In this document: in pieces, positions 43,081-56,218 of the stretch | Layout: every line of letters begins with the position of its first letter | Numbering within the stretch: the first letter of the stretch is position 1 | DNA from: Candidatus Bathyarchaeota archaeon | Lineage (GTDB): Archaea; Thermoproteota; Bathyarchaeia; Bathyarchaeales; Bathycorpusculaceae | Reading direction: 5' to 3' | DNA length: 64,000 nt | Assembly (NCBI GenBank): GCA_963739305.1 | Contig: CAVTZU010000023.1 | Location: 56,167-120,166 of the forward strand | Made by a program: the position numbers and the translations under genes | The notes under the pieces: generated by a model | What the model saw: the letters and a program-made list of their open reading frames with translations, nothing else | Database searches by the model: none | What the model was told of the DNA's origin: nothing

Positions 43081-43704
43081 TTATAAAGTGTGGTCTCTCT
43101 TTTCTGGGTCGCTCTCTTCTATTTCGAAGACGAGGGGGGCGGAAGTGGTTTTTATGCTCAGCTTTATGTTTAGTAAGCCTTCAAGAAGACCTGCCCAGAT
43201 GTCCGATTCATTGATGAAAGGTGTTTTTATCAGAAGATACTTATCCTTCAGATAAAAGTCGCCGAACCCCTGAACCCGCAAGCGCTTGAAGACATCCGCC
43301 CATTTTTCGCGTTGCTGCGTCTGTATTCCCAGTGTCGTTTCGATTGAAACTCTTGTCGCCTCACCCATTCTTTTTCCAATTTCGCGCCATTTCTCCCTCG
43401 GCGTGTTCTGAATCAAAATGTTCAGCAATTCCACGTTAACAAATGCAATGCGGCTTATCCCAGCGTAGTATTCTCCGGGAAAACGCCAATCATAGATCAT
43501 CATGCTTCTGTACACGTCGAGCATTTTAGAGATCAACGGTTTGATCCCGGGTTCTTTTCCCTCGCGAATCAGGGAGTCAATGTATTCTCTTTCATCTTTC
43601 TCAAGGATAATTGTCGTTCTTCTGGCAGCTCCTTCGCCTTTGCCGATCATTTCTTGGAGCTTCTTCTCTTTTTCATCCTGCATACTTGGTATATCTCGCA
43701 ACAT
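43081..43704 (-). CDS. Hypothetical protein, possible RHH-like N-terminus and V4R/TRAPP-like C-terminus
   Basis: RRTTIILE...YIDSLI pattern; EIGKRMGE...GFGDF...GLLEGLL pattern (inferred). Confidence 0.6.
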   Translation of the reverse strand: MLRDIPSMQDEKEKKLQEMIGKGEGAARRTTIILEKDEREYIDSLIREGKEPGIKPLISKMLDVYRSMMIYDWRFPGEYYAGISRIAFVNVELLNILIQNTPREKWREIGKRMGEATRVSIETTLGIQTQQREKWADVFKRLRVQGFGDFYLKDKYLLIKTPFINESDIWAGLLEGLLNIKLSIKTTSAPLVFEIEESDPEKRDHTL

Positions 43705-43748
43705 ATTTTATATAATTTATGTACAGGCGTAAGCATACATAGACATAT

Positions 43749-44093
43749 TCATGAACGAATCATGATCAAAAGCATCTTAAACGGCTCAGTTGCTCTTAAC
43801 GAATGCGGCTTATTCGCGGGCATCACGAGCATGTCTCCAACCTTCAATAGTGAGGACTTTCCGGCAACGGTGGCCTCTGCTTCACCGTCCAGAATGTAGA
43901 TCAAAGCGTCGTAGGGCGCGGTGTGTTCACTTAGTCCTTCTCCTTTGTCAAAAGAGAACACAGTCACCGTGCCCGTCTTCTTGTCGATTATCGTTCGGCT
44001 CACGACTGAGCCTTTCTGATATGCAACTAGATCAGTCATCTTCAAAGGCTGCGACAATCCCGCATTCGAGACGTCTTTACGGTTTTGCTTCAT
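43749..44093 (-). CDS. Cupin domain protein
   Basis: SVVSRT, FSFDKGEGLSEHTAP, MPANKPHSL. Confidence 0.9.
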   Translation of the reverse strand: MKQNRKDVSNAGLSQPLKMTDLVAYQKGSVVSRTIIDKKTGTVTVFSFDKGEGLSEHTAPYDALIYILDGEAEATVAGKSSLLKVGDMLVMPANKPHSLRATEPFKMLLIMIRS

Positions 44094-44218
44094 CTTTTCA
44101 CACTCATTGCATTCTAGACGATTTACGTGATGCCTCTATTTAGGCTCAACAGACTAAACGCTTTGGCCAAACACAATTCTACCGAACGATTTTTAACGCG
44201 GCAAACCAGTGTTTAACC

Positions 44219-44276
44219 TGCCGATGACGAGCCTTTTTTGTCTGAAAAGGTGATGTACTCTAGGGTATCTGAGGCA
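44219..44276 (+). ncRNA. Box C/D sRNA (2'-O-methylation guide)
   Basis: Terminal stem TGCC/GGCA; box C ATGACGA 44224-44230; guide GCCTTTTTTGT; box D' CTGA 44242-44245; C'-like GTGATGT; guide ACTCTAGGGTAT; box D CTGA 44269-44272; TTTTAA about 25 nt upstream; about 58 nt long. Confidence 0.8.
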
Positions 44277-44535
44277 AATCATTATATATGTGTGGTATTT
44301 TCTTATTGGAGAGGGCTATTGTGGATTGGCGCGGCGTTATGATTATAGTTTATCTCGGTCTAGCCCTATAGGTTTAACTGAGGGAAGAAGGGCTGCCGTG
44401 AGACATCCATCTCCGAAAACATTGTAGGCACGCTACGCGCAGTGTTTTCTCAGCCCTTCTCCCTTCAAGCTGACCGCTAGAATTTTACAACACATACCCA
44501 GAAAGACAACAGGGCCTCAGGGTATCTGAGGCAAA
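44262..44535. mobile_element. 257-bp att-flanked non-autonomous element or remnant integrated at the 3' end of the C/D sRNA
   Basis: Exact 17-bp direct repeat AGGGTATCTGAGGCAAA at 44262-44278 and 44519-44535; right copy lies in the palindrome GCCTCA-gggtatc-TGAGGC. Confidence 0.6.
44311..44467 (+). ncRNA. Putative structured RNA inside the att-flanked element
   Basis: TATA-like TTATATAT 44282-44289; stem AGGGCTA/TAGCCCT; 17-position stem 44379-44395/44451-44467 (16 paired) closing two inner hairpins; G-U pairs favour the + strand. Confidence 0.5.
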
Positions 44536-44545
44536 AAAGCTGATT

Positions 44546-44776
44546 TTAAGTGATTATTTTGGCTCGTATCAGATACCACAGCAATAATAGGCCCAGCACG
44601 ATGGTACTGAGTCCGGCTATGGCAGAGTACGTGAAGCTCAGCTTTACCACGTTATATATGACGTACAGAACGTATGGTCCGCCGAATAGCAGAAGAGCCA
44701 TGATGATAACTAGTAGCATTTTTATGTACTTTGAACTCGTGAAACCTGCTTTCGTCGATTGTTTTTCCTGAGTCAT
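44546..44776 (-). CDS. Small membrane protein (two TM helices)
   Basis: Start moved to ATG 44776 (MTQEKQS...); two hydrophobic helices. Confidence 0.7.
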   Translation of the reverse strand: MTQEKQSTKAGFTSSKYIKMLLVIIMALLLFGGPYVLYVIYNVVKLSFTYSAIAGLSTIVLGLLLLWYLIRAKIIT

Positions 44777-44820
44777 CCTTGGTCCGCGCCTCAATCGTGA
44801 CCTAGAATTCACGCTTTCTC

Positions 44821-45474
44821 TTATAACCCTTCCTTTACTTCGTTGCCCAGAGCCTTCATCAGAAATTTGAACACTGAAAAGCCGGCTCCACGATCGGCCT
44901 TGAAACCTGTCGTTGCGCCTAAGAGGCATATGCCATCGAGGCCGCGCTCTCTCGCGAGTCCCAGCATCAGGCCGGTAGCTCCAACGACTCTTCCTTTGCT
45001 GTAGATTACGGCTCCTTTCTCCATGAATTCCAACGCAAGTTTAGGCGTGGTGGCAGCCACATACACCTGGGCTTTTTCTTCTTTGACAGGCGCGCCGCCT
45101 AGTGTGACGAGAAAGCTGCAGCCCTTTTTCTGGACGAAATCCAAAGTCTCGCTGCACAAAACATAGTGAGCAACCACGTCATCGAACGAAGGTTGCGTGT
45201 CACCAGTCATTATTATGAAGTCATTCTTCTCCATAGGCGCAGCGTAGAATTCATACCTGGGAAGGTGACAGATTCCCTTGGAGCTAACGGTCACGTAGTC
45301 TGGGAAAGAAGGTGAATACAACTCTGCAAAGGGCTTTGCTCCACTGAACTTCATCAACAGGTAAGCGGCGATCTTGCCGACGTTTCCAAACCCAGGAAGC
45401 CCCTGAACGAAGATTGGGTTCTTGAGGTCTGGACCTGGCATCTGGCGGAGATACGGCTTGTCCATTATTATCAA
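44821..45474 (-). CDS. PAC2-family (proteasome assembly chaperone-like) protein
   Basis: QGLPGFGNVGKIAA, LYSPSFP, TGDTQP, TLGG, VGATGLMLG, CLLGAT. Confidence 0.9.
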   Translation of the reverse strand: MIIMDKPYLRQMPGPDLKNPIFVQGLPGFGNVGKIAAYLLMKFSGAKPFAELYSPSFPDYVTVSSKGICHLPRYEFYAAPMEKNDFIIMTGDTQPSFDDVVAHYVLCSETLDFVQKKGCSFLVTLGGAPVKEEKAQVYVAATTPKLALEFMEKGAVIYSKGRVVGATGLMLGLARERGLDGICLLGATTGFKADRGAGFSVFKFLMKALGNEVKEGL

Positions 45475-55240: not shown

Positions 55241-56218
55241 TTAAGGCGTTGCGTGCACGTAGATTTCTTGTACTGTTCTTCCTGTTTCACCCATCTTCGC
55301 AAATAGCATCGATAGTATTTCCACGAACGCAGCGTAATTGGTCCACAGTGCAAGGATTTTGGATTTCTTCTTCTCTCTGTCGTCCTTTTCTTCTGCGTTT
55401 TTCTGTATCGCGATTAACAACTCTTTTTTGTCGACGATTATGAAGCACGGCAAGTTGGATGCATCCACCATGTGATATTTGTGGGCTGCCCAGCTCATTT
55501 GTTCTATGAAGTATCTGCTCTTAGACGAATTCTCGGTCAGCAACGTAATCTTCAGTTTGCCCATGTGGCGCTTCAGGTTATCTGTGAAATCGCTATGATA
55601 GAGTTGAGCCAAATACTCGCTCGGAGCATAAATCAGGATTTCAGTTTTCGCCCTTTCGAGAAGTTCATTCGCCTTAAGAATCATCTGCTGTCCGCCTTCG
55701 AGTATCTGGAAAATGTCCTTCTCGCTGTTCTCAACTTTCTGTTGAGGAATTGACAACCAAAGCTCGACCAAGCCAAGTTTCTCTTTTTCGAGAAGACTTA
55801 TCTTCATTTTCTGAGCATCAATCAGCAAGTCAACTGCTTTTTCCAGGGGCACAGCCGTGAATTTCAAGGGTTTTTCAAAAGCCGAATATACAAGGCCTTT
55901 TTTCTCGAGGTCACGCAATATCCTGTAGGTTTCTGTTCGATGGAGCGAGATCGCTTCAGCTATTTCAGAAGCCTTTCTTTCACCTGATCGCGCAAGGTTC
56001 AGGTAAACCCTTATTTCATTCCTTATCAATCCATACCGAGCAAGAGTTTCCTCAATCATCGCCAATTGCTTGTTGAAGCCCTTTTCTCTTTTGACATATC
56101 TCCATGATTCGTTGTCATCGTCATACACTTTGATTAAGTCAACAGCATTCTCAATTGATTGACCCATGCAGACATTCACCATTTCCATTGGACTCGTTTT
56201 GAAGAGTTTGAGCGTCAA
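55241..56218 (-). CDS. TrmB-family transcriptional regulator
   Basis: YGL..NEIRVYL.L...KASEIA...HRTETYRIL.DLEKKGLV...KP.KF.AVP; C-terminal FIIVDKKELL effector domain; true start may be downstream. Confidence 0.9.
   Translation of the reverse strand: MTLKLFKTSPMEMVNVCMGQSIENAVDLIKVYDDDNESWRYVKREKGFNKQLAMIEETLARYGLIRNEIRVYLNLARSGERKASEIAEAISLHRTETYRILRDLEKKGLVYSAFEKPLKFTAVPLEKAVDLLIDAQKMKISLLEKEKLGLVELWLSIPQQKVENSEKDIFQILEGGQQMILKANELLERAKTEILIYAPSEYLAQLYHSDFTDNLKRHMGKLKITLLTENSSKSRYFIEQMSWAAHKYHMVDASNLPCFIIVDKKELLIAIQKNAEEKDDREKKKSKILALWTNYAAFVEILSMLFAKMGETGRTVQEIYVHATP

Follow-up and report, generated by a model that had tools for sequence, protein, structure and literature searches.

A 257-bp insert at the 3' end of a C/D-box guide RNA gene in a Bathyarchaeota genome: a probable remnant of an integrative element

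The 64,000-nucleotide stretch of Candidatus Bathyarchaeota archaeon contig CAVTZU010000023.1 analysed here (assembly GCA_963739305.1, contig positions 56,167 to 120,166; hereafter the window, on contig C23) carries a small RNA (sRNA) gene of the box C/D methylation-guide type, the 3' end of which is repeated 257 bp downstream. We consider it very probable that these 257 bp are what an internal deletion has left of an integrative element, either a temperate virus or plasmid-like, that had used the guide RNA gene as its host attachment site (attB). The evidence consists of the insertion itself, which is absent from the corresponding sites of relatives, the homology of both ends of the insert to full elements in other genomes, the presence of the element's own attachment site (attP) in viral contigs, and a tyrosine recombinase gene that adjoins the site wherever a full element occupies it. 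As a scar the insert is ordinary, being small, decayed and of modest interest alone; what appears to be new is the class of target, together with the integrase family responsible.

An insert at a guide RNA gene and its empty counterparts

The two copies of the 17-nt direct repeat AGGGTATCTGAGGCAAA that bound the insert (Table 1) are 100% identical and lie 257 nt apart from start to start. Even with up to two mismatches allowed the window has no other match, and in 100 dinucleotide-preserving shuffles there was no match at all. The right copy reads GCCTCA-GGGTATC-TGAGGC (44514-44532) and folds into a 7-bp hairpin; the left copy reads ACTCTA-GGGTATC-TGAGGC. Within the insert are two inverted 11-mers, TATGTGTGGTA (44287-44297) and TACAACACATA (44486-44496), which are 91% complementary and sit 8 and 22 nt inside its ends, not at the termini. 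The first-pass annotation of this DNA, made from its letters alone, had described the exact repeat of the sRNA 3' end, the inverted arms that are complete in the right copy and partial in the left, and the imperfect inner sites, and all of these descriptions stand. It had also reported that the window lacks an integrase gene, and this too is confirmed: the 15 matches to Pfam PF00589 in the window's own genome, like those of single-protein and profile searches, all lie on contigs other than C23. The interior of the insert is single copy in this genome, and its minus strand contains no open reading frame (ORF) of 30 aa or more.

The sRNA gene aligns end to end with the Rfam family snoPyro_CD (30 bits, E 3.4e-4, below the gathering score of 45), and the cmscan alignment places boxes C, D', C' and D in order, with guides of ~12 nt and a terminal stem. 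Five of the eight weak Rfam matches in 44000-44700 are to C/D families, all below their gathering scores; no match at gathering level, and no transfer RNA (tRNA), was found anywhere in the window. Aligned over 22 loci, the gene varies in its D' guide but is conserved in its boxes and its D guide; at the left junction (attL) it is complete through GGCA, as it is in relatives. The 18-nt 3' core of the sRNA, allowing up to two mismatches, is present in 249 of 301 sampled genomes of the family, usually once. A search for an rRNA target of the D guide gave nothing convincing: there is no 12-nt match with one mismatch or fewer in the 16S or 23S of its own genome, the best being 10 nt with two G-U pairs in 23S, and there is no RNA run among the public runs listed as holding the sequence.

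Comparison with relatives shows what has been added. When the region 43700-45000 was used to search 41 genomes (40 relatives and the window's own), matches were split: the cupin gene and the sRNA align as far as query position 577-579, and alignment resumes at about 965 with some 257 bp less DNA between. Nineteen loci from relatives were retrieved (L010-L028), and the 13 with a BLAST match to the sRNA were inspected, the six that match the flanking genes only being excluded. At all 13, nine of them from the same genus and four from other genera, the sRNA ends ...CTAGGGTATCTGAGGCA and the 3' end of a membrane-protein gene, homologous to the one beside the insert, follows directly, within about 25-45 nt. 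Empty sites with a single repeat copy, which had been suggested as something to look for, were thus found: all of the relatives examined here have the empty form, and the window holds 257 bp more, between two copies of the core.

Full elements, free attachment sites and the integrase

When the 246-nt insert was compared with 401 genomes of the order there was one real match, in G059, all others being short matches of 20-34 nt. In G059 the similarity to 44282-44349 (78% identity, E 1.3e-7) is to the start of a 400-aa ORF directly 3' of the orthologous sRNA, and downstream on the same contig are genes for an HK97-type capsid (PF05065, E 2e-4; phrog_1650, E 1.3e-8), a portal and a tail tube (PF18906, above cut-off). 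A second core with one mismatch lies on another contig (C60), followed by homologues of the membrane protein (37.5% identity over 112 aa) and of the next gene, p217 (78% over 215 aa). Judged by its gene content and flanks, G059 carries a head-tailed provirus at the site equivalent to that of the window.

Two further genomes are occupied in the same way. G391 has two exact cores 15,563 bp apart on one contig, which enclose a 417-aa integrase homologue, 77% identical to that of G059, and 15 further ORFs; these gave one Pfam match above cut-off (DUF6011), and there is no capsid protein among the 15. The membrane-protein homologue follows the right junction (attR) of G391, as read from its flank. 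In G250, attL and the integrase gene are at one contig end and attR at another. In all three genomes the integrase gene, of 400-417 aa, adjoins the sRNA. Both ends of the window's insert align with the G391 element: on the left from the sRNA through 44345 (108/136, 79%) and on the right over 44495-44538 (40/45), which includes the last 24 nt of the 15.6-kb element. The suggestion that integrase-bearing elements might be found at the same attachment site has thus been borne out in three other genomes, by elements of 15.6 kb and more.

The corresponding attP is found in free viral sequence, viral contigs being among the places that the first-pass annotation had proposed to search. A profile of 12 integrases (alignment A1) identified 13 IMG/VR loci, six of which (L092-L097) have the core, with no or one mismatch, just upstream of the integrase gene. 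Five of these contigs have a left flank that is not sRNA and carries the P-arm motif common to the elements, so representing attP; the sixth contig begins at the core. We aligned the attachment-site arms of the IMG/VR attP loci with the right flanks of attL and the left flanks of attR. The P' arm (11 sequences aligned) has a block TTATA.TATGTGTGGT 6-25 nt from the core, followed by an integrase start with the consensus GTG/ATG GAT TGG ... TAY GAK TAY GG. The P arm (10 sequences aligned) has a TAC..CCATAC-like motif about 22-35 nt from the core, and GGCCTC abuts the core in several elements; farther out than about 40 nt, no alignment of the compared P arms is possible. In this alignment the two inner inverted sites of the insert coincide with the conserved P' and P blocks. 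We infer that the blocks are arm sites for the integrase, and the sequence TTATATAT would be a TATA box, giving the region a promoter role.

One apparent relative of the P' block within the window's own genome was set aside: a 20-nt exact match of 44287-44306 to G000:C28:34582-34601 (L002 1501-1520; E 0.003-0.005) lies inside a membrane-protein ORF without further similarity and is probably due to chance. Separately, contig C145 of G416 (L066) has an attP-like junction of P arm, core and P' arm, followed by an integrase gene broken by stops after about 85 aa, and the genuine sRNA site of this genome (C189, L083) is empty. The junction might stem from an episome in decay, from a viral contig binned with the wrong genome, or from an insertion elsewhere.

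The identity of the neighbouring gene depends largely on structure and catalytic residues. Among the 12 aligned homologues R172 is present in 11 and K220, H294, R297, H322 and Y339 in all 12. An AlphaFold model of the integrase (pLDDT, the predicted local distance difference test, 77) was compared with the PDB using Foldseek; the best match was the archaeal Xer 4a8e (E 2e-5), followed by XerA, Tn1549 Int, IntI, lambda Int, Cre and the catalytic domain of the SSV1 integrase. The predicted fold has two domains, and identifies the neighbouring gene of the full elements as a tyrosine recombinase. Because the core lies upstream of the integrase ORF, integration leaves the gene unsplit, and it is indeed whole in the integrated copies.

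The window's own genome has no full homologue of this integrase family, whether sought with a single protein (best E 9.6e-4) or with a profile. The sole match to profile A1 is a 38-aa internal fragment corresponding to positions 92-129 (G000:C20:147480-147593, L078 1501-1614; E 8.7e-6), which lies within an ORF of 56 aa, next to which no sRNA can be recognised. The fragment resembles what a second element of this family would leave on decaying.

Several further observations concern the core and the sRNA locus rather than the elements. Box D of the window-type sRNA is CGGA, not CTGA, in several genomes (L022, L063 and L083, and at attR of G059 in L047); G059 therefore has CTGA at attL and CGGA at attR, a mismatch that could help to place the crossover given the attB allele of the lineage. 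Paired cores in G219 (L106/L107) and G392 (L108/L109) were considered as attachment-site pairs and rejected: each genome has two full sRNA genes, each copy with its own downstream membrane-protein gene, reflecting paralogous duplication of the whole sRNA locus. Four genomes of the genus to which the window belongs, G001 (C1:322087, L105), G002, G008 and G010, have a conserved core-like 18-mer, CTCAAGGGTATCGGAGGC, at a further locus. In G001, the sole genome inspected, neither a C box precedes it nor an integrase start follows, and by eye the sequence seems to be coding; the 18-mer was not found in the window's own genome at one mismatch to a 13-mer.

Origin of the insert

In explaining how a 257-bp insert came to be bounded by these cores, we propose that a tyrosine integrase recombined the attP of an element with an attB comprising the last ~18-20 nt of the C/D-box sRNA gene, that is, the 3' half of the D guide, box D and the 3' terminal stem. 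Since the core is also present in attP, integration would rebuild the sRNA 3' end at attL, with another core remaining at attR. The integrase gene of intact relatives begins some 45-60 nt to the right of the core, so that it abuts the sRNA after integration. A deletion would then have taken all between about codon 12 of the integrase and a point within ~160 nt of attR, leaving the promoter region and a frameshifted 5' stub of the integrase gene, an unmatched stretch of ~125 nt with a hairpin, and ~35 core-proximal nt of the other arm. With no recognisable coding content of its own, and no integrase of the family in the genome, the remnant would now be inert unless an infecting element were to supply a related one. 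We infer the deletion event and the position of the crossover, as we do the promoter and arm-site roles proposed above.

The state of the left end favours a remnant, as do the lack of a minus-strand ORF within the insert and of any PF00589 match on C23. Integrase homology in the window ends near 44358, at about codon 12, and since a stub of ~12 codons is all that there is, and no full homologue exists in the genome, the insert is better regarded as a remnant than as an autonomous element. The stub has a 1-nt gap relative to 10/10 homologues, so that the VDW codons, read in the frame of 44321, and the RRYDY codons, read in that of 44290, both of them conserved, are out of register. The right end has the core-proximal sequence CAGGGCCTC, which is both the left arm of the right-copy hairpin and a feature of the G416 attP-like junction. 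The features of the locus are collected in Table 1.

Table 1. Features of the sRNA gene, the insert and the adjoining host gene (window coordinates)
Feature	Position	Strand	Remarks
C/D-box sRNA gene, bears attB	44220..44275	+	C box GATGACGA, D' CTGA, C' GTGATG, D CTGA, terminal stem GCC/GGC
attL core, left repeat copy	44262..44278	+	3' part of D guide, box D, 3' stem, AAA; same core flanks full elements in G059, G391 and G250
P' arm remnant	44279..44358	+	Includes conserved block TTATA.TATGTGTGGT; aligned with 10 other P' arms
TATA-like TTATATAT	44282..44289		Inside P' arm remnant, which also holds inner site 44287-44297
Integrase stub, first ~12 codons	from 44321	+	Begins GTG GAT TGG; 1-nt gap after 44329 relative to intact genes
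Unmatched middle of insert	44359..44483	.	Long imperfect hairpin
P arm remnant	44484..44518	+	Conserved arm motif (window TACAACACATACC, inner site 44486-44496) and core-proximal CAGGGCCTC; aligned with 9 other P arms
attR core, right repeat copy	44519..44535	+	Host DNA follows
Small membrane-protein ORF, convergent	44546..44929	-	Conserved right-hand neighbour of the sRNA; true start probably further in

Public metagenomes provide a view of the site in a population. The best holders are four peat-metagenome runs from one study, present as contigs and compared with the window at 85% likeness; they may include the source sample and are not independent of it. The occupied form is found in X1 record 4, which covers 44249-44497 with two other letters and four one-letter insertions (44285, 44302, 44307 and 44329), and in X3 record 20, which covers 44331-44497 with two other letters; in some contigs three extra letters follow 44494 and bring the P-arm motif nearer to the consensus. 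In contigs with the empty site (X1 record 7, X4 record 29 and a loose end of X2), the sRNA letters GATGTACTCT are joined straight to 44519 onward, with one other letter in 103-165 nt. Occupied and empty alleles therefore coexist in near-identical backgrounds. With the additional letter at 44329/44330 the integrase stub no longer has its gap, meaning either that the window copy is further decayed or that it contains assembly indel errors. Across these comparisons the public contigs differ from the window mainly by single-letter insertions and not by substitutions (44285, 44302, 44307, 44329, 44494, 44532, 44544), and these differences could be indel errors of the window assembly instead of real decay.

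Several points weigh against the interpretation of the insert as a deletion remnant of a tyrosine-integrase element. The first concerns the middle of the insert, with its hairpin (arms 44379-44395 and 44451-44467, 88% complementary, with a nested pair at 44415-44424/44440-44449): no match was found for these ~125 nt, so that a simple one-step deletion of a known element is not demonstrated. Its sequence has no relative in its own genome, in the 401 genomes of the order or among the retrieved elements (blastn and tblastx, nothing below E 0.19); a search for the pattern of the hairpin arms returned no viral contig, and 12 metagenome contigs, all of them unlike the insert outside that pattern. 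Neither core is damaged in any way, the two conserved arm motifs survive, and the coexistence of occupied and empty alleles would be expected of an excisable element also. The integrase is itself remote from curated models, scoring 18.4 bits (G059) and 22.3 bits (G391) against PF00589 where the gathering score is 27.1, and the best match of the 12-integrase profile to PDB sequences, Tn1549 Int, has an E value of 0.06; and recombination at this site is deduced from sequence. The lack of a match for the middle is only weakly informative, given that P arms cannot be aligned beyond ~40 nt, and 44359-44483 may be the progenitor's own arm.

The first-pass annotation had read the repeats as attL and attR of a tyrosine integrase with the C/D-box sRNA as attB, which empty sites, occupied sites and attP now support, and had then left a choice between a mini-element mobilised in trans and a collapsed provirus. 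The latter is favoured, since the left end proves to be the integrase promoter region and first codons. A living non-autonomous mini-element, excised and re-integrated by the integrase of infecting viruses, would account for cores that are identical over 17 nt, for the survival of both the P' block and the P-arm motif, and for the occupied and empty forms among the peat contigs. We think it quite improbable nonetheless, as the insert is single copy in its own genome, its interior is not found in the other 400 genomes of the order (homology to the integrase start aside), the genome lacks a cognate integrase, and a frameshifted stub is typical of decay and not of streamlining. The polymorphism might equally be strain variation, and among the contig joints and loose ends listed there is neither a joint that skips exactly 257 bp nor a circular junction. 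Joints from 44276 to 44785..44818 have short sides with unknown letters between, and are read as other organisms. On the boldest view the insert, having kept precisely those cis sites that an integrase requires (both cores, the P' block and the P-arm motif), would be a helper-dependent element, and the coexistence of alleles in near-identical strains would reflect ongoing mobilisation; this we likewise judge to be unlikely.

Two other explanations fare much worse. In the one, a transposase or casposase would have duplicated a 17-bp target to give the repeat, and the insert would be a transposon resembling a miniature inverted-repeat transposable element (MITE), being short, non-coding, flanked by direct repeats and furnished with imperfect inverted 11-mers; yet the 11-mers are internal where terminal ones would be needed, the insert is single copy, and free viral contigs carry the same core beside a tyrosine recombinase gene, which makes it an attachment core common to element and host, not a duplication created by insertion, and we give this explanation next to no credence. 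Equally implausible is the proposal that no insertion occurred and that the right copy is a chance repeat or a terminator hairpin, next to the A/T run with which the convergent gene ends, for the shuffled sequences contained no match, the 257 bp are absent from all 13 relatives, the oligo-T tract of the convergent membrane-protein gene (overlapping 44530-44537 on the minus strand) is in host DNA outside the hairpin, and the GCCTC arm of that hairpin is element-derived attP sequence common to G391 and G416.

A second guide RNA and comparison with known systems

The insert in the window belongs to a wider pattern. Relatives of integrase P0001 (E <= 1e-5) are present in 25 of the 301 sampled family genomes, and the core seen in the window accompanies only those that are at least 55% identical (five of 27 loci, in four genomes, one being the G416 attP-like junction). 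Upstream of ten more distant integrases (39-49% identity) the context is different: five are directly 3' of another sRNA, with C, D', C' and D boxes, that ends ...GACTCGACGGGCGAACTGAC, a sixth (L052) has this second core without the sRNA, and four have no recognised target. An Rfam search with 161 nt of the second RNA gave weak matches exclusively to C/D families (16/16), the best being sR2 at 21 bits (E 0.0056, below the gathering score); a search at E <= 0.1 over seven integrase loci did not pick it up. Two copies of the second core lie 28.1 kb apart on one strand in G306, and the window's own genome has the second sRNA with an empty site, on C22. No tRNA was found in 17 integrase loci. As far as gene context can tell, two clades of one integrase family use at least two different C/D guide-RNA genes as docking sites, and the hosts of the family are Bathyarchaeia, the taxon given for 15 of the 16 stronger loci. 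Within one element, adjoining a clade-2 integrase, there is also a DUF3800-X RNA (RF02984, 60 bits against a gathering score of 38; L058 522-592, G231:C33).

The practical consequence is that a conserved sRNA 3' end with an adjacent integrase gene provides a simple marker for proviruses, and for linking uncultivated viruses to Bathyarchaeia. With its core conserved in 249 of 301 genomes, the guide-plus-box-D end is as good an anchor as the end of a tRNA gene. The pattern also suggests that some archaeal attachment sites described as 'intergenic' are unannotated sRNA genes.

Site-specific integration into the 3' ends of tRNA genes and transfer-messenger RNA (tmRNA) genes is textbook knowledge, and tyrosine integrases that target these genes, from phages, archaeal viruses and genomic islands, were reportedly treated by Williams in 2002. 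The present system is similar in that attB is the 3' end of a small, conserved gene for a stable RNA, which is rebuilt from the core of the element, and in that the integrase gene adjoins the attachment site and direct repeats flank the element. It differs in its target, which is a C/D-box methylation-guide sRNA gene. In a limited collection searched by full text we found no report of a C/D sRNA gene as attB.

Archaeal tyrosine integrases that target tRNA genes are reviewed in PMC8371274, and the available text of that review does not contain the words sRNA or snoRNA. In Thaumarchaeota, 68 mapped targets of integrated elements comprise 39 tRNA genes, 15 intergenic sites and 14 protein genes, the attachment sites have a median length of 17 bp, and head-tailed proviruses and cryptic elements share integrases (Krupovic et al. 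2019, PMC6563490). Our elements have the same short attachment sites and the same mixture of head-tailed proviruses and cryptic integrated elements, but their hosts are Bathyarchaeia and their targets are sRNA genes; both of our cores are absent from Table S2 of that catalogue, and the word sRNA from its text as available. Since archaeal targets in the catalogue and the review are tRNA genes, protein genes and 'intergenic' sites, sRNA genes add a class of attB to these. In the available text of two papers on Bathyarchaeia viruses and proviruses (PMC10848311 and PMC11705971), excluding supplements that possibly list attachment sites, there is no sRNA attachment site.

Archaeal integrases are divided into a non-suicidal pNOB8 type and a suicidal SSV type, in which attP lies inside the integrase gene (PMC8371274, PMC7253208). 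The integrases described here are like the pNOB8 type, for the gene remains whole after integration and attP is outside the ORF, and unlike the SSV type, the core being upstream of the gene instead of within it. They are at the same time remote from curated models, PF00589 scores falling below the cut-off.

Two precedents come closer to the target itself. A small RNA gene other than a tRNA serves as attB for phiEf11, which uses ffs, the bacterial 4.5S RNA gene (PMC12540744); the parallel is limited, since the phiEf11 target is a bacterial signal recognition particle RNA, whereas here it is an archaeal box C/D guide RNA, and two such genes are used by two clades of one family. In Pyrobaculum, MITE-like elements that resemble C/D sRNAs form multi-copy sRNA-like repeats (Lui et al. 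2018, PMC6009581), in an article whose available text contains no occurrence of integrat-, virus, viral, attachment or recombin-. They share with our elements a link between C/D sRNA loci, mobile DNA and genome instability; however, the sRNA of the present system is not itself a mobile repeat but a fixed host gene that is used as a docking site.

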